The notes below the pieces were generated by a model, which saw only the letters and a list, made by a program, of their open reading frames with translations, did not search any database and was not told the origin of the DNA. Shown here in pieces: positions 8,758 to 19,634 of a stretch of DNA of 64,000 nucleotides. The translations under genes were made by a program, and so were the position numbers. Within the stretch, counting starts at the first letter, position 1; each line of letters begins with the position of its first letter. Source of the stretch: Candidatus Dadabacteria bacterium (GTDB lineage: Bacteria > Desulfobacterota_D > UBA1144 > Nemesobacterales > CSP1-2); the NCBI GenBank assembly GCA_963805855.1, contig CAWDVW010000007.1:160001-224000 (forward strand), in the 5' to 3' direction.

Positions 8758-10095
8758 ATGTCTCTGAAAAAGAATGATCTAGCTACCCTGAACGAGCAGC
8801 TAAAACATCATATGGGAATCATAATGAAATGCACCTTGCCATCGGCTAAATATGGCAAATTGCTTCTAGCGTCTCCACCTGATTCGAGATACCCGTACAT
8901 CTATCCAAGGGATACGAGTTGTGCGGTTCAATTGTTCAGGCGTCTGGCTGGCTCTCACAATGGTTACGACGTAGCTGATCAGTCGTTTGAGATCATCAAG
9001 TCGATGGCAACTTTCATGAAGGATTGCCTATCAACCTATGGGTGCTGGGGCCAGCGTTACAGCATAGAGGGAGATGACAAGAGTATATATAGACAAGAGG
9101 ACAACGTTGCGCACGGAATATCAATCATTTGCAATTATTTGTTGACCGCCAACTACTTAAAAAAAGACATCGAGAATCTGGAAGATTATCTACAATGTGT
9201 GAATAGTGCACTGGATTATAGCATGAAAAATTCGTACACAAAGGAATTAAACCTATTCTATTCAACTACCTCAATTCATGAGTCTTCCATGGAAGAGGGG
9301 TATACCTGCTGGGTTAACTTTTCCTATCTCTATGCCTTTTCGCTGGCCTGTGAAGTGGCCTCACTCTTAGATGAAAAGCACATCATATCGAGGGATCACC
9401 TGAGTTTCAGAAAACAGTTTCTGTATTCTGTCAGTGAACTCTTCATGTCGGGGCACAGATATGTGAGGCGCATAGAACCCCAGGGGAATATGGATATGCG
9501 TCCAGATTTCACTCTCCTGAGTCCATTTTATTATGGTTTTCTGCACTATAAGCCCGAGATGGAAAACAGTATCCAGTACATCGAAAAGCAGCTCTGGGAT
9601 CCGGAACTCGGAATGATCATGAGATACCTGCCCTTCTATAGGGATTTTGCAACTCATATCCATGCGGGGAATGGCCCCTGGACGCAGTACACTGGCATTC
9701 TGGCACAATATCACTATTGGAAGGATGATATCGAGCGGGGAGACGAGTTGCTTGGTATGATTGATAGATTCAAGGATGAGAAAGGGGACATTCCTGAGCA
9801 TCTGTCCACGGTTCAGAGGTATGAAGAGTTTATGGAGAAAGAATGGAAGACCGGGACAGATTTTAATAAGGAATTCTACAAGCCGATTCTGCTTGAGGAT
9901 GTTGACTTCAATAAGATCCTGGAGGAGGCTAACAATATGTCGAGATCATACGAAGAGACAGGTAAAAGGTGCACATTCAGAGACGAATCCAGCAGCGAGG
10001 GTGGTTACATTCAATTCTCGAAACCGCTTATGTGGTCGCACGTGGAGTATGCCCGCGCACTTCTAGTCAGGGCTGGTGATTGGTGGAACTTGTAG
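8758..10095 (+). CDS. Glycoside hydrolase family 15-like protein (glucoamylase/trehalase, six-hairpin)
   Basis: YPYIYPRD, GQRY, QED, GNGPW, IPEH and PLMWSH motifs; GGAGGTG RBS. Confidence 0.8.
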   Translation: MSLKKNDLATLNEQLKHHMGIIMKCTLPSAKYGKLLLASPPDSRYPYIYPRDTSCAVQLFRRLAGSHNGYDVADQSFEIIKSMATFMKDCLSTYGCWGQRYSIEGDDKSIYRQEDNVAHGISIICNYLLTANYLKKDIENLEDYLQCVNSALDYSMKNSYTKELNLFYSTTSIHESSMEEGYTCWVNFSYLYAFSLACEVASLLDEKHIISRDHLSFRKQFLYSVSELFMSGHRYVRRIEPQGNMDMRPDFTLLSPFYYGFLHYKPEMENSIQYIEKQLWDPELGMIMRYLPFYRDFATHIHAGNGPWTQYTGILAQYHYWKDDIERGDELLGMIDRFKDEKGDIPEHLSTVQRYEEFMEKEWKTGTDFNKEFYKPILLEDVDFNKILEEANNMSRSYEETGKRCTFRDESSSEGGYIQFSKPLMWSHVEYARALLVRAGDWWNL

Positions 10096-10761: not shown

Positions 10762-13700
10762 ATGAGAAAAGTTAAAAATAAGCAAAACCGGATAGAAAGT
10801 GAGCCAAATTCAACCAAGCGTATAAGCAGTAAGCCCTCTGAAAATTATTCAACGTCATCTAAAACTTTGATTAAGGGGAAGAGGAAAGTGAAAGATTCCA
10901 CAAATAAATTGATTGATATCGAAAAACGCCTTCGAAAACAGAATGAGGTCCTTGTGAAAATCGCTAAGAGCAGATTCATGGAGAAGGGGGATTTGACGAA
11001 TGCCCTGAGGGAAATAATAGAAGCATCTGCTAAGACGCTGGGAGTGGATAGAGTTAACGTATGGCTTTACAATTACGATCGCTCGAAGATATATTGCATT
11101 GACCATTATGAAATGAGTTCAAACCAACACTCAAAGGGACTTGAATTAGCTTCCGCGGATTATCCATCGTACTTTGAAGCATTGGAAAAAGAAAGAATCA
11201 TAGCTGCTCACGACGCACATACCGATCCCAAGACGAAAGAGTTTTCACAAACATATTTGCTACCAAACCGGATTGGTTCGCTCTTAGACGCTCCAGTATG
11301 GAAAGGCGGGAAAATGATTGGTCTGGTTTGTCACGAGCATGTAGGACCAGCGCGGACATGGACAAACGAGGATCAAGCCTTTGCGGCATCTATTGCTGAT
11401 TTTATATCGCTGGCTTTTGAATCTAGGGACCGCAAGCAAATAGAGGCGGAACTGGAGGAGTCCCATTCGCTTTTAATTGCGACCCTCGAATCTACCGCGG
11501 ACGGGATTCTAGTGGTTGATAGAGAAGGGAAAATAATAAGATTCAATAGAAAATTCGTCGATATGTGGAATATCCCTGATTCCATCATTGAGTCGAAAGA
11601 TGACAACAGGGCATTAGAATTCGTCTTGAAACAGCTAAAAGAACCGGAACGGTTTGTTTCAAAGGTAAAGGAATTATATGATCAACCGGAATCCGAAAGT
11701 TATGATCTGTTGGAGTTTAAGGATCGAAGGTACTTCGAGCGCTATTCTAAGCCACAGGTGATTGGCAATAATATACTCGGGAGGGTTTGGAGCTTTCGGG
11801 ATGTTACGAATCAAAAACGAGCGGAACAAGCTCTTCGTGAAAGCGAAGAGCGTTATCGTACGCTTGTTGAACATACCTATGATCTAATTAGCGAGGCTGG
11901 TATCGACGGACGCTTTTTGTATCTGAGCGCTAATCATAAAGAGATTCTTGGTTACGAACCAGAGGAGCTCGAGGGCAAAAATATTTTCGAAAATATTCAT
12001 CCAGATGATAGTGAAACCGTAAAGCGGGAATTTCAGAGAATAATGGAAACATTCTCCTCTGGTCATGTGGAATTCAGAATCAAACACAAAAACGGGCAGT
12101 GGAGATGGATTGAAAGCTCTGGCAAACCATTGAAGACTGCCAATGGAGAAGTCCGAGCTGTGATTGCCTCACGTGACATAACTGAGAAAAAGATTGCTGA
12201 AGAAGCACTCAAAGAGAGTCTTTCGCTGCTATCAAGAAAAAACCGATATGAGACTATTATAGGTTCTGTTACCCGGAGCGTTCACCAATCCATTGATTTT
12301 CAAGAAGTGCTAGAAAATGCAGTCGAATCCATGAGTAAAAACATAGCTGGAGCCGAAAATGTGGGGATCTGGCTTGTCGAGGGAAATGATGCCGGTTTGA
12401 AAGCCTATAGAGGGTTCCCCGATTGGTTTGTAGAGCGTTTAAGTAAAATTCCATACCCCAAAGGGGTAACCTGGAAGACTATCACGAATGACAAGCCATT
12501 ATATTCTGCGAATACAGAAAAAGATAAGGTGATGGGGCCCGCCGGGATTGAATTGGGTACAAAGAGTTATCTGTCCATGCCTATACACTTTGGGGGTAAA
12601 ACCGTAGGTGCGATAAACATAAATTCACTAAAGGAGAGTGCCTTTGACAAAGAAGAGTTAAATCTGCTTGCGATCATTTCACAGCAGATAGAAGTCGCGA
12701 TTAACAATGCTAAACAGGCTGAAGCATTGCTTGAATCGGACAGGGCGCTTAGGGAAAGCCTTGATCAATTATCTAAAAAGAACAGGTATGAGACTATAAT
12801 AAGCACCGTGACCAGGAGTGTTCACCAGTCAACGAATCTCGAGGACGTTATGGATAACGCCGTACAATCAATCAGCGAAAATATAGGTGGGGCAGACAGT
12901 GTAGCAATTTACATAGTGGAAGGTGAGGAGGCTGTGTTAAAAGCTCAACGGGGTTACAGTGATTGGTATATGCAGAGGGTTGGAAGAATTCCGTATCCAA
13001 AGGGATATGCCTGGAAGGTTATCATGGACGAGCGTTATAGATATTGTGCGGATGTGGATCAAGATACGGTTATTGGTCCCGCCGGTAGGGAGTTCGGCAT
13101 AAAGAGCTATTTATCCATGCCTATTCTATACGAAGGTAAGACGATCGGAGTGATAAATGTAAATTCGCTCCAGAAAGATGCCTTTGATGAGGATGAGTTG
13201 AAACTCCTGGAAATAGTGAGGGAGCAAATCACGGTAGCATTAAATAATGCCAGACAAAAAGGAGCGCTGGAAGAGGCGCTTTCAGAGGTCGAAAGATTAA
13301 AAGATCGGCTGGTGGACGAAAGTGAAAATATACATGGTGGTTTTGAAAGCAGCCACATTTTTAAAGATGTGAAAGGCAAAAGCATGTCACTTCAAAGGTC
13401 TCTTTTTAAGGTTTACCAATATGCATCATCTGATTCAGTACTATTGATTCAAGGTGAAGTTGGTACTGGAAAGGAACTGATAGCTAGATCTGTTCATGAG
13501 ATTAGCCCGAGGAGGCAGAGACCGTTTATTAGCGTAAACTGTGAAGAATTGTCTAAAGAAGCAATTGAGCTGGAGCTATTCGGACACGAGGCAAGGGGTT
13601 CGGCTACGGGCGCGCTCTCCATTAGGATTGGTCGATTTGAAATGGCAAATAATGGAACTATCTATCTGGAGGAGATTGGCGCAATACCACTGGAATTACA

Positions 13701-14118
13701 GTACAGCTTAGCTAGGATCTTTCAGGAAGGGGTTTTTAGTAGATCTTCAAATAACCGTCTGATTAAGGTTAATGTAAGGGTTATAGCTTCATCAAAAACC
13801 GATGTGGGTGAGCTCTTCCAGGAGGGCAAACTCGGTGAAGAGCTATACAATCAAATAAATAGTTTTCAGGTCACCATTCCGCCCCTCCGTGATCGCAAAG
13901 AGGATATTCCACTGCTTTCGAAACATTTCATTGATAAACATGGATATAAGCTGGAGAAAAAAATAGATTCAATACCCCATGAAGTTGTCGAATATCTCCA
14001 AGCCCATGATTGGCCTGGAAACGTCAGTGAACTGGACAGATTACTAGAGCAGGCAATATATCGTTCGAAGGGAACAACCCTGGAATTGCATGATTTGGCT
14101 GACCTTATTGTGAAATAA
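10762..14118 (+). CDS. GAF-PAS-PAS-GAF-GAF sensor with degenerate sigma54-activator-type AAA+ domain and no HTH
   Basis: N-terminal GAF (SLLDAPV...GLVCHEH), two PAS domains, two duplicated GAFs, GEVGTGKE Walker A, VNC, ELFGHE, IPPLRDRKEDI, WPGNV; ends shortly after the AAA+ lid. Confidence 0.88.
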   Translation: MRKVKNKQNRIESEPNSTKRISSKPSENYSTSSKTLIKGKRKVKDSTNKLIDIEKRLRKQNEVLVKIAKSRFMEKGDLTNALREIIEASAKTLGVDRVNVWLYNYDRSKIYCIDHYEMSSNQHSKGLELASADYPSYFEALEKERIIAAHDAHTDPKTKEFSQTYLLPNRIGSLLDAPVWKGGKMIGLVCHEHVGPARTWTNEDQAFAASIADFISLAFESRDRKQIEAELEESHSLLIATLESTADGILVVDREGKIIRFNRKFVDMWNIPDSIIESKDDNRALEFVLKQLKEPERFVSKVKELYDQPESESYDLLEFKDRRYFERYSKPQVIGNNILGRVWSFRDVTNQKRAEQALRESEERYRTLVEHTYDLISEAGIDGRFLYLSANHKEILGYEPEELEGKNIFENIHPDDSETVKREFQRIMETFSSGHVEFRIKHKNGQWRWIESSGKPLKTANGEVRAVIASRDITEKKIAEEALKESLSLLSRKNRYETIIGSVTRSVHQSIDFQEVLENAVESMSKNIAGAENVGIWLVEGNDAGLKAYRGFPDWFVERLSKIPYPKGVTWKTITNDKPLYSANTEKDKVMGPAGIELGTKSYLSMPIHFGGKTVGAININSLKESAFDKEELNLLAIISQQIEVAINNAKQAEALLESDRALRESLDQLSKKNRYETIISTVTRSVHQSTNLEDVMDNAVQSISENIGGADSVAIYIVEGEEAVLKAQRGYSDWYMQRVGRIPYPKGYAWKVIMDERYRYCADVDQDTVIGPAGREFGIKSYLSMPILYEGKTIGVINVNSLQKDAFDEDELKLLEIVREQITVALNNARQKGALEEALSEVERLKDRLVDESENIHGGFESSHIFKDVKGKSMSLQRSLFKVYQYASSDSVLLIQGEVGTGKELIARSVHEISPRRQRPFISVNCEELSKEAIELELFGHEARGSATGALSIRIGRFEMANNGTIYLEEIGAIPLELQYSLARIFQEGVFSRSSNNRLIKVNVRVIASSKTDVGELFQEGKLGEELYNQINSFQVTIPPLRDRKEDIPLLSKHFIDKHGYKLEKKIDSIPHEVVEYLQAHDWPGNVSELDRLLEQAIYRSKGTTLELHDLADLIVK

Positions 14119-14141: not shown

Positions 14142-16988
14142 ATGAAGAGAAGTAAGGATAGTTTTAATCGGTCTTTGCTTGACGCTTTTGATAATTTTGC
14201 ATCGCGCAACTGCTTCAAGGTAAAAAGGGGCTTCGGGTATCGAGATTATAATTATATGCAAATTCAAGGGTTCGTTTTTCGAATTGCGCTATTTTTACAA
14301 TCTCTCCGACTCGGCAAGGGCGAGAGGATTGCGATTGTTGCTGAAAATTCCCCTGAGTGGCTGGCGGTATTTATTGCTACTATGTTTTCAGGTTGCGTCG
14401 CCGTACCTCTATCGACAAGCCTCCGCTCGGACATGTTTAGATTAATACTAAAAGACTCAGGAGCCAGGGTTGCCGTAATTCAAGATCAACGATATTACAA
14501 TGAAATTCGCAACCATGAAGGGGAACTGCCTGATTTGAAAACAATCATTCTTGTTAACGAGTCGGTTGAATCCATGTCCGAGGTTATCTTGCTTAATTCA
14601 ATTCTAGAACAGTCGATCGCTCATAAAGATACGGCCGAAATTCGTACATTGGCAGAAGGAATTGACCCAAATGATTTCGCCCTAATTTTGTATACCGCAA
14701 AGGAAACCGATAAGCCAATGGGGGCGGCATTTAACCATTTCCAGATGTATACATCATTAGAGAATATGTCAAAATGGTTAAATTTTGAAGAGGATGATAT
14801 GGGCTTTACACTTCTCAACTGGGGAAACCCCATAAGTCTAAAGGTATCACTTGATTACTTTCTATCTGGTGTCAACAATTCTTTGGCCGAGAGTATTGAC
14901 ACCGTGTTTGAGAATCTCCAGGAAACGAGTCCTACCTTTGTCCTGACAATTCCATTTGCACTCGAGAATATATACAACAAGGTCATAACTGAGTTTAGTA
15001 AGTTTCACGGTTCGCGTCAAAGCATTTTTCTCTGGGCTTTAGCCACTAGTAAGGAGTATCATTCTGCAGGTCTGACGGCATCAAATGAATTACGTGAACG
15101 TTACAGGCGTGCTGACATGACATTTTTTAGTCAGATCAGGGGGATGTTAGGGGGTAGACTTCGTCGGATTTATTTGGCGGGTGCAAGTATATCTGAAGAG
15201 TTGGTAGATTTCGCAGAGGCTATAGGATTGAAGGCCTTCAATTTATATCATGTCACCGAGTCTGGCGGATTTCCCGCTCTTTGTGCTTCTGATGCAAACC
15301 GTCCCGGAACCTGTGGACAGGTGGCACCTGGTTTCCAAATTCGTATTGCCGATGATAGCGAGGTTCTGGTCCGGGGTGAAACTGTAATGAAACAGTACTG
15401 GAAGAAGCCCGAAGAAACCTCTCAAACGATCGATTCTGATGGTTGGTTACATACAGGGGACCTAGGACGCTTCGATTCCGATGGTTTTCTATATTTAACT
15501 GGATATAAACAGTCAGTGATTAAGTTGTCAAAAGGGCTAAAGATAATGCCAGATACGGTTGAAAAGGTATTAACCTCAAATCCGTACATTTATCAGGCTG
15601 TGGTATTAGGAGAAGGGAGACCCTATGTCTCGGCCCTCATCGTGCCAAATTATGAAGCACTTGCGGCGCACCTGCGTGAACATGCAGAAGGAGAGGTTGG
15701 AACGCTTAACATGTATCACCCTGAAGTCCATTCCCTCTTAGACAAAGTGGTTGCCGAAATTAATAGCAAATTAGACCCTTGGGAGCGAATAGAGGCTTAT
15801 ACACTTCTAGATCAGCCCTTTTCCGGGGAGAAGGGTGAGCTAACACAGTCCATGAAGGTCAACCGTAATGTAATTGCAGAACGCTATTCTGTCCATACAG
15901 AGGCGATGTATCCGATGACAATTAGATTGGAAGAGAGTGCGGTAACTCAGGTGGAACTAGAGCCTGAGCATCTTCGTGAATTGTTAGAGAAGCAAGACAT
16001 TCTTGACGCATGGATAAAGGACGCCGGTATTGGCTTCTTGTTCGACCTTGCAAGGGCGAAGCAAATCGACATCACCTCAATGGTCCATATTTGTGATACT
16101 GTTTCAGCAATTGCACAGATGCAGAGCGAAGAAAAGCCACTGTCCACTGCATTAATAGTCGGGGATCCTTCCAGAGTTTCACATGTCTTACCGGAAAGCG
16201 AGATTCAACTTCAAAGGTATGATCATATTCGCCGGATGCGTCAGGTAGTGATTACGCTTGCTAAGGTGGTAGACGGCGTGTTGTTTGCCTACGGTGTGGA
16301 TAAACTTGGTTACGTGAGGAAGATACATAAGCTAGATAGAGAACTGGATCACCCTGCCAGTTTTCTTCTTGGACCACAGTTCAGTCATCACGCAGCCATC
16401 TCTGAAAAATGTGATGCGGTTGTGTTCTTTGTGCCTAAAGGCGGTAGACAGGTACGAGTATTTGCAAATGGCCAACTCGTAGGTCGATACACAGATGGAA
16501 ACTGGTATTCGGAGAGTACACCGTATTTGGAGGAATCTGTCGCTAGACTGGCTGAACAAAAACAGATCGATTTGAAATTGTTAACAAGGATACTACGCTG
16601 TGCATTCCAGATGTCGGAGGAGAATTTAGGTGCAATTATAGTCCTGGGAGACTCGGAGGTAATTTTAAAACGCTCCGACCCCCCGGGGATAGCCGCCTTT
16701 GCAAACCTCCTCAGCACTCCTATAGAAAAGATATCCGATCGCGAATTGATCAACTTTGCCAAGCAGGACGGAGCAACAATTATAGATACAAATCAGGGTC
16801 TATTCAGGGCATGTATGGTTCTACTTAGACCTGAAGCCAATACCAAGGCTGATGTTGGAATCGGTAAAGGTGCTCGTCACAGCAGTGCTGCTAAGATGAG
16901 CGCTGAAGCAAATTGCTTGGCGATCACGGTTTCACAGGATGGTCCTATTACTTTGTACGACGCCGGAAAGAGGATATTATCTTTATAG
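14142..16988 (+). CDS. Long-chain acyl-CoA synthetase-like (AMP-binding) domain fused to tandem diadenylate-cyclase (DisA_N/DAC) folds
   Basis: ENSPEW, EVLVRGETVMKQYW, DGWLHTGDLG, GEGRPYVSALIVP, ELTQSMKVNR in the N-terminal part; KQDGATIID, GARHSSAAKMS, AITVSQDGPITLY in the C-terminal part. Confidence 0.85.
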   Translation: MKRSKDSFNRSLLDAFDNFASRNCFKVKRGFGYRDYNYMQIQGFVFRIALFLQSLRLGKGERIAIVAENSPEWLAVFIATMFSGCVAVPLSTSLRSDMFRLILKDSGARVAVIQDQRYYNEIRNHEGELPDLKTIILVNESVESMSEVILLNSILEQSIAHKDTAEIRTLAEGIDPNDFALILYTAKETDKPMGAAFNHFQMYTSLENMSKWLNFEEDDMGFTLLNWGNPISLKVSLDYFLSGVNNSLAESIDTVFENLQETSPTFVLTIPFALENIYNKVITEFSKFHGSRQSIFLWALATSKEYHSAGLTASNELRERYRRADMTFFSQIRGMLGGRLRRIYLAGASISEELVDFAEAIGLKAFNLYHVTESGGFPALCASDANRPGTCGQVAPGFQIRIADDSEVLVRGETVMKQYWKKPEETSQTIDSDGWLHTGDLGRFDSDGFLYLTGYKQSVIKLSKGLKIMPDTVEKVLTSNPYIYQAVVLGEGRPYVSALIVPNYEALAAHLREHAEGEVGTLNMYHPEVHSLLDKVVAEINSKLDPWERIEAYTLLDQPFSGEKGELTQSMKVNRNVIAERYSVHTEAMYPMTIRLEESAVTQVELEPEHLRELLEKQDILDAWIKDAGIGFLFDLARAKQIDITSMVHICDTVSAIAQMQSEEKPLSTALIVGDPSRVSHVLPESEIQLQRYDHIRRMRQVVITLAKVVDGVLFAYGVDKLGYVRKIHKLDRELDHPASFLLGPQFSHHAAISEKCDAVVFFVPKGGRQVRVFANGQLVGRYTDGNWYSESTPYLEESVARLAEQKQIDLKLLTRILRCAFQMSEENLGAIIVLGDSEVILKRSDPPGIAAFANLLSTPIEKISDRELINFAKQDGATIIDTNQGLFRACMVLLRPEANTKADVGIGKGARHSSAAKMSAEANCLAITVSQDGPITLYDAGKRILSL

Positions 16989-17254: not shown

Positions 17255-19634
17255 TTGCTATCTGTAATAACTAAATATACAAAATGGCTCCATACCCGCT
17301 GGCCGGCGGGCGTTGTAGAAAAACTACCCCTTGTTAATGAGGATTATTCAACTAATATTCCTGGACTGTACGTTGTCGGTGATTTAACGGGAATCCCTCT
17401 TCTTAAGTTTTCTTCCGATAGTGGGGCCAAGGTTGTCAAGAATATTCTAGCAGGTGAGGATTTTAAACGACAGAAATCCGAAGAGAAAACGAAGGGGCTA
17501 GTGGATTTAGTAATCGTTGGAGCAGGGGTGTCGGGAATGGCATCGGCGTTAGAGGCAAGGAAAGCAGGATTGAGCTTTGAGATCCTTGAAGCAACCGAGC
17601 CCTTCTCGACTATAGTAAATTTCCCTAAGGGTAAACCTATTTATACCTACCCTAGAGATATGACCCCAGCCGGTGATCTCCAATTTTCCGCTACTGTAAA
17701 GGAACCTCTGGTAGATGAGCTTAAAGAACAGACACTTCGAAGGGGTATAGAGCCTCGAATTGCAAGGGTTGAAAGAGTCATACGAAGGGATGATTTTTTT
17801 GAGGTTGTTATACCTGACGGAGAAAACCTGCTTGCTAAAAGGGTAATCATTGGGATTGGGCGTTCGGGAAATTTCAGGAAGCTCGGTGTTCCGGGAGAGG
17901 ATCTGGATAAGGTTTTTAATCGTCTGCATGATCCAAAGGATTTTTGTGGCCAAAATGTGTTGGTGGTGGGAGGCGGCGATACTGCCTTAGAGACAGCAAT
18001 CGCATTAGCGCAGTGCGGTGGCTATGTATCGTTGTCTTACAGGAAGGATGAATTCTCAAGGCCCAAACCAGAAAACATAGAACGGCTTAACAAATTGATT
18101 TCAAATCCCATGGCTGCTGTTGGGGTCGAGACCCCAACGTCAGAGCGCGTAACGACGAGTACGGGTGCTTTTATCCCTTCGGATCATGCACCAGGAAAAA
18201 TCAAATTGCTGTTGAAGACTAAGGTAAAGAGCGTCACCGAAAATGAAGTGTCACTTGTAGATGCTGATGGAAAGGGAGTATCTATTCCAAATCAAGCGGT
18301 ATTTACAATGATAGGTCGTGAGGCTCCACTGGATTTTATTCGTCGCAGCGGCATTAAGATCAAAGGTGAGATTGGCGCAAAAGGTTGGGTTGGCTTAACT
18401 CTCTTTTTGCTTTTTGTCACGTTTGTCTACCATTGGAAATCGGGGGGCTATTTATCAAGGTTTTTTGAAACACATAATTGGTTTCCTTACAATGTGCCAG
18501 ATTTTATTTATGGCTTGGGTGCATTTGTCGCTGATAAGGCTGCCGATCCTTCTACCCTATTAGGTACTTTGACGATAAACCTTGAAGAACCCGGCTTTTA
18601 TTATAGTTTAATGTACACGTCACTCATTATTATTTTTGGTATACTCAGAATCAAGCGACGAAAAACCCCTTACGTGACGGTACAGACTGTGTCTCTAACG
18701 TTTTTCCAGGTACTTCCTCTATTTTTATTACCATACATAATTTTGCCGTACATGGGCCACAATGGATTGTTCGACTCTGGGGTATTGAAATCTGTGGCCG
18801 ACTCCCTCTTTCCCGAAGTCAACTATGAGCACGGACGAGAATATTGGAGGGCATTCGGTTTTATACTTGCCTGGCCACTATTCATCTGGAATGTCTTTAG
18901 CTATCAGCCCATGTGGGGTTGGTTGATCATTAGTCTGGTCCAGACTTTTGTAATCATCCCCCTATTGATTTATTTTTGGGGTAAGGGCGCATATTGTGGT
19001 TGGATCTGTTCCTGTGGAGCTATGGCAGAGACCTTGGGTGACACACAAAGGCAGAAGATGCCACACGGTGCATTTTGGAATAGGTTGAACATGGTTGGAC
19101 AGGTAATATTGGCGGTGGCCTTTCTCATCTTAATATTTCGAATTGTCAGCTGGATATTGCCCGATACCTCAATTGGGAATCTCTTTAATCGAATCTATGA
19201 GGGGCTTCTTTATAATTGGAGTTTTTTCGGGATCCAGATTAATTACAAGTGGTTTGTTGATCTTTTCCTGGCTGGAATAATAGGGTATGGGGTGTATTTC
19301 TGGTTTAGTGGACGTGTATGGTGTAGGTTTGCCTGCCCACTGGCGGCTTTGATGCACATCTACGCGAGATTTAGCCGGTTTCGTATCCTTTCTGATAAGA
19401 AGAAAGTGTATTTCGTGTAATGTCTGCACATCGGTTTGCCATCAGGGAATAGATGTAATGAACTTTGCGAACAAAGGTATTCCAATGGAAGATCCGGAGT
19501 GCGTTAGGTGCAGTGCGTGCGTGCAATCTTGCCCGACGGGTGTTCTACAATTTGGCCAGGTAAATAGAAGAACCGGCGAGGTAATTAAGATAGACAGCCT
19601 CGGCGCGTCTCCTGTGCTGATGCGCGAGCAGTGA
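17255..19634 (+). CDS. TrxB-like FAD/NAD(P) oxidoreductase fused to a NapH/RdxA-type membrane polyferredoxin; one-base frameshift at ~19404
   Basis: VGAGVSG and VGGGDTA Rossmann motifs, several TM helices, YCGWICSCG, WCRFACP; the shifted frame continues CISCNVCTSVC and CVRCSACVQSCP to TGA at 19634. Confidence 0.85.

Follow-up and report, generated by a model that had tools for sequence, protein, structure and literature searches.

The stretch of DNA examined here, referred to as the window, comprises 64,000 nucleotides from a Candidatus Dadabacteria bacterium (assembly GCA_963805855.1, contig CAWDVW010000007.1, positions 160,001 to 224,000 of the forward strand). On its plus strand, positions 14142..16988 hold an open reading frame (ORF) for a protein of 948 amino acids (aa), in which Pfam searches, a structural model and 304 homologs distinguish a degenerate ANL (acyl-CoA-ligase-like) domain, a helical linker, a pseudo-diadenylate cyclase (pseudo-DAC, copy 1) and a diadenylate cyclase (DAC, copy 2). 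The two DAC folds lie in the last 290 codons of the ORF, and motifs are intact in copy 2 alone. An initial annotation of this DNA had proposed such a pair, one degenerate and one catalytic-looking, and the proposal was borne out: the fold predicted for copy 1 is that of a DAC, copy 2 matches the DAC (DisA_N) family PF02457, and the strings that had been quoted, with D876 at 16767 and R912 at 16875, are all present in the translation.

Domain organization of the 948-aa protein

In the Pfam search, aa 31-590 were assigned to an AMP-binding (ANL) domain and aa 822-943 to a DAC domain, and there was no match to a transmembrane anchor or to the helix-hairpin-helix domain of DisA. The full-length AlphaFold2 model, built with 42 homologs, had a predicted local distance difference test (pLDDT) score of 85.1 and a predicted template modeling (pTM) score of 0.80, and in this model helices and strands follow one another in a like order in aa 644-790 and aa 811-947. 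A Foldseek search with the full-length model returned, amongst the matches listed, only ANL enzymes. PADLOC had no match to the protein, the plasmid collection had none to the ORF, and a promoter and terminator scan at the locus stayed at chance level.

The ANL domain (aa ~8-592; 14163..15917, plus strand) was recognized by PF00501 (E 3.6e-39) and PF23562. Over aa 1-592 it shares fold and sequence with long-chain acyl-CoA synthetases of the FadD11 type, including the TGDxG motif, which is retained in 112/116 full-length homologs. FadD11 was its best NCBIfam match, at 205.8 bits against a cut-off of 950, and the domain fell far under every NCBIfam cut-off shown. The canonical P-loop of ANL enzymes reads [YF][TS]SG[TS]TG, and their motifs are customarily labelled A3, A8 and A10. 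Unlike in the FadD11-like synthetases, the P-loop, the A8 motif and most of the A10 lysine region are degenerate here, and the domain is fused to a DAC pair. Neither the canonical P-loop nor [GD]RxK[DE] was found in any of the 116 full-length homologs, and LT[PA][ST]xK was found in 10 of them. Of the six further ANL ORFs in this genome, three have an intact P-loop. Although databases frequently label the protein a long-chain acyl-CoA synthetase, an active enzyme of this kind was rejected in view of the loss of the P-loop and [GD]RxK[DE]. The ANL domain, judging from its sequence, is a probable ligand sensor that would bind without catalysis. It is followed by a conserved helical segment at aa 606-639 (15957..16058, plus strand; helices 608-628 and 631-639; conservation 0.80), possibly an oligomerization helix, which also forms the N-terminus of stand-alone forms of the pseudo-DAC/DAC module.

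Copy 1 (aa 640-792; 16059..16517, plus strand) was delimited by profiles, structure matches and column counts. Alone, it gave only a weak match to the Pfam DAC family PF02457 (13.5 bits, E 0.057), though one that covered model positions 7-118 of 119; it had no DAC match in NCBIfam and was covered by none of the Pfam models tried. Its likeness to copy 2 exceeds chance: in a profile-profile comparison from a 111-row alignment the two copies matched with a probability of 98.9% (E 3.1e-16, 135 columns, 17% identity), and eight control pairings with four ligase-domain segments reached at most 6.7%. Profiles from 121 close homologs (the query and the best-scoring 120 of the 304) gave no significant match (3.9%, E 0.011), so the duplication signal depends on distant relatives. 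The AlphaFold2 model of isolated copy 1 had a pLDDT of 90.6, and all 15 of its Foldseek matches at E<=0.001 were DACs. Amongst 48,161 chains compared with VIA-align, six had Z>=5, every one a DAC (Z 10.3-13.3, rmsd 2.8-3.5 A, 129-138 aligned residues), and the next had Z 4.3; the structures matched were those of DisA, CdaA, CdaS and CdaM. On these models, copy 1 is predicted to be a DAC fold, one without the catalytic Arg, His and Ser. In the ESM Atlas, a single weak lead (0.75, below the 0.9 mark) pointed to a cluster with DACNV on 37% of its members, and the DACNV model had no match at the ORF locus. Mean conservation was 0.797 in copy 1, 0.795 in copy 2 and 0.62 in the ligase domain; since copy 1 equals copy 2 in this respect, it is being maintained and is not decaying.

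Catalytic motifs in the two copies

Copy 2 (aa 811-948; 16572..16985, plus strand) is a DAC domain with its catalytic motifs intact. Over residues 822-943 it matched PF02457 with E 1.4e-16 and 60.6 bits (gathering cut-off 27), and the NCBIfam models for DacZ and DisA matched it in part, with 33.7 and 34.0 bits, respectively. Its profile matched solved CdaA and DisA chains, with its motifs aligned to theirs; a profile was required, as single-sequence phmmer searches of the PDB with the module and with copy 2 returned no DAC. The DGA motif D876-G877-A878 (16767..16775, plus strand) and the RHR-type motif G910-A-R912-H913-S-S915-A916 (16869..16889, plus strand) are kept in 121/121 close homologs, where D876, G877, A878, G910, R912, H913, S914, S915, A916 and S931 are invariant. 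The residues reported to be fully conserved across curated DACs are D, G, G and R (PMC13640721); all four, together with His913 and Ser931, are held by copy 2 in every close homolog. The initial annotation had remarked on RHS in place of the canonical RHR. Of 22 other DAC rows examined, 20 had a readable motif, and 13 of these are without the third Arg, among them two of the three other DACs of the same genome; RHS is thus ordinary variation among DACs and was rejected as a signal of new chemistry.

At the RHR position, copy 1 has G744-P-Q746-F747-S748 (16371..16385, plus strand), with QF for RH. Amongst the close homologs the two residues are Q (97/121) or R (19/121) and then F (118/121), and Pro stands in 121/121 where copy 2 carries the Ser. 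RH was found in copy 1 of none of the 103 module sequences used for all distant-family counts, in agreement with the initial annotation, which had already noticed that RH is missing. The R143A substitution in DacM, which removes the Arg that copy 1 lacks, is reported to abolish activity, as is R105A in EcPanS, and an RHR-to-AAA triple mutant of M. tuberculosis DacA is reported to have lost both activity and ATP binding.

The DG of copy 1 had been paired by eye with the DGA of copy 2, a pairing that is probably three residues out of register. D711-G712 (16272..16277, plus strand) is a conserved Asx-Gly that, by column counts and spacing, precedes the catalytic DGA register by three residues; the register itself is occupied by L714-F715-A716 (16281..16289, plus strand), with the Asp lost. 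In hidden Markov model (HMM) alignments, the LDGA of DacZ-type enzymes falls on copy 1 positions 713-716, which read V-L-F-A in this protein and, in the distant family, hold a polar residue, then Gly (34/103) and then Ala (49/103), with eight members reading DGx[DE]G. From the Asp to the next strand-ending Asp, copy 1 (D711-D720) spans 10 residues in 100/103 sequences and copy 2 seven in 103/103; one additional residue precedes the copy 1 DG in 98 of the 103. The canonical DAC motif is described as DGA followed by three hydrophobic residues (PMC6741144). A catalytic DGA in register and an RH motif are thus both absent from copy 1, which has LFA, QF and Pro for Ser. D711 is kept in 120 and G712 in 121 of the 121 close homologs. 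In the distant set the first position is D in 62, N in 24 and S in 6 sequences and the second is G in 93, and Asn also replaces D711 in 3/10 close stand-alone forms whose copy 2 motifs are intact. Because D711 is three residues off the catalytic register and is Asn in 24/103 distant homologs, it is probably structural: instead of providing a metal ligand, D711-G712 would form an Asx-Gly turn within an insertion of four residues.

These counts bear on whether copies 1 and 2 could form a composite site, in which D711 would act on the ATP of copy 2 and make a single bond, yielding a linear dinucleotide or passing AMP to another acceptor. We consider such a site very unlikely. The conservation of D711-G712 amongst close homologs is consistent with it, as are the report that the DGA Asp acts on ATP bound by the partner domain (PMC6741144) and the Arg found at the third RHR position of copy 1 in 107/121, where copy 2 has Ser; however, the 10- versus 7-residue span places D711 out of register, Asn replaces it in both distant and stand-alone forms, and the Asp of copy 2 itself never varies, which is what a symmetric copy 2/copy 2 site requires. 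Of the roles that the initial annotation had offered for copy 1, the asymmetric composite site with a non-canonical product is disfavored (RH in 0/103, DG off register, D711 replaced by Asn in 24/103 and Ser in 6/103), and a scaffold or allosteric role is the favored one.

Copy 1 of the ANL-fused family also carries a basic stretch at H695-R698 (window 16224-16235), in which H695 is kept in 119/121, R697 in 120/121 and R698 in 121/121, with further basic residues at R726, R772 and R782. R698, which is not conserved in stand-alone forms, may contact the ANL domain or a ligand.

Proposed mechanism and known DAC systems

For both copies, the closest DAC type is DacZ/CdaZ (NF041371; H. volcanii DacZ). 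The copy 1 profile scored 46.7 bits on the DacZ-type DAC of the genome, 26.2 on a PK_C-DAC protein and at most 12.7 on the CdaA types, and the copy 2 profile about 74 bits on the DacZ type compared with 34-53. Like DacZ, the 948-aa protein is soluble and has its regulatory region at the N-terminus and its DAC at the C-terminus. Unlike DacZ, it has no pyruvate-kinase-C-like (PK_C-like) N-terminal domain, a DAC fold preceding copy 2 and a 590-aa ANL domain forming the N-terminus, and it scored 38.9 bits against the NF041371 cut-off of 430.

A dead DAC-related domain ahead of a live DAC is already present in CdaG/DS-2C (DACNG-DACNH-DAC; PF21752, PF21750; NF053872), so the principle is not new. 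In CdaG the domain before the DAC is described as very distantly related to DACs and without catalytic residues (PMC13640721), and DS-2C proteins with this dead domain are reported still to make cyclic di-AMP (c-di-AMP). As judged by its profile matches, copy 1 is a different, DacZ-related domain, and it is a much closer relative of DACs than DACNH. Copy 1 did not match DACNH, DACNG or DACNV, the first two of which had no match in the protein at E<=1 or in its genome, and the copy 1 profile did not match one DS-2C protein (E 4.6); copy 1 as a DACNH domain was rejected. Additionally, DACNH occurs in 1/120 genomes of the phylum, a genome that is not amongst the 14 module carriers, and unlike CdaG/DS-2C the protein has no CBASS context among its nearest neighbors.

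CdaA/DacA and DisA (PDB 6HVL, 6GYW, 3C1Y) share with this protein the fold and the DGA and RH motifs, and this protein would be expected to share the need, reported for DAC catalysis, for two domains to meet head-to-head (PMC8573169); here, in contrast, a second DAC fold lies in the same chain and is degenerate. For CdaA, a stable dimer that is not catalytic, its active sites pointing away from each other, is reported, and catalysis needs higher oligomers (PMC8573169). By analogy, the simplest fit would have copy 1 stand in, within the same chain, for the partner in that non-catalytic arrangement. We therefore lean, with some confidence, toward a ligand-regulated accessory c-di-AMP synthase, in which copy 2 would pair between chains and copy 1 would serve as a scaffold or relay. 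The ANL domain would bind an adenylate, acyl-adenylate or acyl-CoA-type ligand without turnover; copy 1, packed on copy 2 as in the non-catalytic CdaA dimer, would relay the ligand signal and in this way decide whether the copy 2 domains of two chains meet; and paired copy 2 domains would then join two ATP to 3'3'-c-di-AMP. A homodimer prediction for aa 601-948 with ATP and Mg scored 0.02 (mark 0.42) with no interface reported, and weighs neither for nor against such pairing.

Several observations weigh against such a synthase. Across distant members, the complete D/G/G/R set of copy 2 is found in no more than 56/103 sequences (75/103 if Lys is allowed), and some relatives may for this reason be inactive or carry out other chemistry. 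The counts over 121 sequences, drawn from the best-scoring 120 of 304 homologs, are biased toward conservation. D711, present in 120/121, may have a trans role, given that the DGA Asp is reported to act on the ATP of the partner domain. Finally, the D-to-R spacing of copy 2 exceeds that of DisA and CdaA and lies near that of PanS, which makes the mixed dinucleotide cyclic UMP-AMP (cUA).

This spacing is 35 residues in 87/121 and 36 in 34/121 close homologs, compared with 37 in PanS, 34 in the DacZ-type DAC of the same genome, 33 in TmDisA and 32 in BsCdaA. PanS of Panoptoo/PanDA is a precedent for a DAC that has no canonical RHR and reaches a non-canonical product by breaking symmetry, and PanS DACs are reported to make 3'3'-cUA through a longer flexible lid (bioRxiv 10.64898/2026.08.10.743927). 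That a copy 2/copy 2 site makes a mixed dinucleotide such as 3'3'-cUA by this lid-loop mechanism seems quite unlikely, even though the spacing is near that of PanS and smaller residues, A911 and S915, stand at both of the positions that are Thr in TmDisA. These positions (T107/T111) are reported to be tied to base choice, AbPanS with A/T making c-di-AMP only and EcPanS with G/A mixed products; the A/S of copy 2 is nearer to AbPanS than to EcPanS. The surplus residues of copy 2 align just before G910, outside the PanS lid segment, and at E<=1e-25 the 119 ORFs that directly flank the genes included no 2TM-beta effector or CD-NTase. PanS proteins are also homodimers of about 150 aa per chain that act constitutively and come with a 2TM-beta effector. 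These features were not seen for the 948-aa protein; it is no minimal DAC with an adjacent effector of the Panoptoo/PanDA kind.

GlmM is reported to inhibit CdaA by blocking head-to-head pairing (PMC8573169), a precedent for copy 1 acting as a tethered decoy that would sit head-to-head on copy 2 and be released by the ANL ligand, the product still being c-di-AMP. We judge this unlikely. Polar residues near the copy 1 motif regions are indeed conserved (D711, Arg at position 748 in 107/121 and H750 in 118/121), and so is the basic stretch H695/R697/R698. In DisA, however, both termini point away from the active face, and by this geometry the link between the copies, which in the AlphaFold2 model is a hairpin and one helix of about 20 residues (aa 787-810), seems too short to let them meet head-to-head within one chain. 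The RH-region and Ser positions of copy 1 also vary freely among distant members.

A further reading is rather doubtful: the portable pair would work as a heterodimeric synthase within a single chain and make a nucleotide signal other than c-di-AMP, switched by a dead acyl-CoA ligase that senses acyl-adenylate or acyl-CoA. A half-site of D711 and copy 2 would give a linear dinucleotide or an adduct of AMP with an acceptor, whereas the lengthened loop of copy 2 would give a mixed cyclic dinucleotide; if true, lipid activation state would be tied to a new second messenger.

The signals that control most diadenylate cyclases are an open question. As a ligand-regulated c-di-AMP synthase, the ANL-pseudo-DAC-DAC family would offer a soluble, single-chain test case with a recognizable ligand-binding fold as its input, and this input points to a testable link from fatty-acid or adenylate metabolism to c-di-AMP. 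A dead/live DAC pair has parallels in pseudo-kinase and degenerate-GGDEF pairs, and a structure would show how the dead copy might control the live one. This interest is tempered by the CdaG precedent and by the likelihood that the product is ordinary c-di-AMP. We found no paper on ANL-fused or tandem pseudo-DAC/DAC proteins, although an existing DAC classification, or Extended Data Fig. 1 of PMC13640721 with its undescribed DAC architectures, may already list the architecture; the Galperin 2023 classification reportedly comprises 22 DAC families.

Module family and genome context

A search for the module over 1.84 billion representatives gave 332 matches, and 77 of the best 150 were scanned with Pfam. 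Their N-terminal partners were PRTase-CE (25), Lon_C/ChlI-like and/or zf-HC2 (22) and CHAT (4), more rarely ANL (3), helix-turn-helix (2), CBS, REC, LRR and TPR (1 each), and in 17 none was detected; DACNG, DACNH and DACNV were found in 0/77 at E<=0.01. Close stand-alone forms, some of them on long contigs, are 342-350 aa long, share 47-51% identity and start at the helical segment. A quick tree was built with 39 hand-picked rows of the 111 module rows (one row in it, L095, is labelled DacZ-like and groups with CdaA). All 39 copy 1 rows fell on one side of a branch (Shimodaira-Hasegawa-like approximate likelihood ratio test, SH-aLRT, 99), copy 2 was not recovered as one clade, and the ANL-fused, Lon_C-fused and PRTase-CE groups reappeared in both copies, a pattern in keeping with a single duplication passed on as one unit. 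The pseudo-DAC appears to have arisen once and to have been put to use again after N-terminal domains of eight or more kinds, for which reason one structure would inform the whole clade; the pseudo-DAC/DAC pair is a portable unit and the N-terminal domain an exchangeable input. Coevolution pairs between the copies (mean-field, 336 module sequences, effective 188, 309 columns) were discarded as noise, since the expected strand pairings were not recovered.

Amongst the fused branches, those with PRTase-CE (25/77, P0153-type) and with CHAT/caspase-like domains (4/77, P0240-type) may be conflict systems. Lys replaces the catalytic Arg of copy 2 in several PRTase-CE members, and in the zf-HC2/Lon_C-fused P0175, P0180, P0189, P0211 and P0225 the copy 2 RH is also lost, leaving two degenerate DAC folds.

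The genome collection held 66 loci, mostly from Anaerolineae and Ca. Dadabacteria/Thermodesulfobacteriota, with some from Acidobacteriota and Spirochaetia; these were retrieved by copy 2 patterns, so that copy 2 conservation among them is circular. The module was present in 14/120 genomes of its own phylum, and a full-length match in 2/301 genomes of the phylum of an Anaerolineales genome (G121). Tandem full-length ANL-pseudoDAC-DAC paralogs, with copy 2 motifs intact in both, occur in Anaerolineae/Caldilineaceae (L014:131-6020, L027:3-3753 and L034:4113-9975), and several Chloroflexota genomes carry two to three copies of the gene.

Besides this protein, its own genome encodes three other DACs, and a canonical DAC was also present in 5/5 other carrier genomes tested, which fits an accessory role for the ANL-pseudo-DAC-DAC protein. 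One of the three (L003, G000:C7:511566-512162) is a DacZ-type DAC of about 200 aa without a PK_C-like domain and with the motif RHM, a type found in 24/120 genomes of the phylum. In one relative (L074 / L100, G007:C28:51477-53050), a stand-alone DacZ-type DAC gene adjoins the ANL-pseudoDAC-DAC gene in convergent orientation.

No neighboring gene was common to all loci. The 119 immediately flanking ORFs included 11 Ser/Thr kinases and eight sigma54-type AAA+ proteins, and 34 hand-picked co-oriented neighbors included three SpoIIE proteins, a histidine kinase, a Usp, a class III cyclase and an EAL protein. The ANL-fused branch looks like general signal transduction and not defense. The patchy distribution given above and the PRTase-CE and CHAT partners of module relatives would also suit an anti-phage or conflict component like CdaG/DS-2C or PanS, and the common database name would suit a fatty-acyl-CoA ligase that is active and to which a DAC has been added. 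We regard these two possibilities together as the least probable of those considered: PADLOC had no match, CBASS components were absent from the 119 flanking ORFs at the threshold used for effectors, the matches of these ORFs were limited to generic kinase, AAA+ and ABC models and one CARF-beta-galactosidase model, the guanine-plus-cytosine content of the gene (0.445) is close to that of the genome (0.435), and the ligase motifs are lost throughout the full-length homologs, with an intact loop in half of the other ANL ORFs of the genome.

Upstream of the synthase candidate, a GAF/PAS and sigma54-type AAA+ protein is encoded at 10762..14118 on the plus strand, ending 23 bp before the ORF start, and the same arrangement was seen in 7/66 loci (L005, L009, L010, L012, L019, L020 and L026). 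In these loci the gene lies upstream on the same strand, at 22-62 bp in six of them, and is directly upstream in L012. The GAFTGA loop of the protein is lost, its Walker B motif is altered and the chain ends before a C-terminal helix-turn-helix; for these reasons it is probably no transcription activator. It is likely to be an operon partner in this lineage only, and may be a partner sensor.

Two further ORFs on the plus strand of the window were recorded. A 445-aa ORF at 8758-10095, which also occurs in L005, had no Pfam, NCBIfam or PADLOC match. At 17255-19420, a flavoprotein resembling YpdA/thioredoxin reductase is fused to a membrane 4Fe-4S (NosR/NapH-like) region, and a frameshift is possible there, because the stop at 19420 shortens the ferredoxin part relative to the longer L005 homolog.

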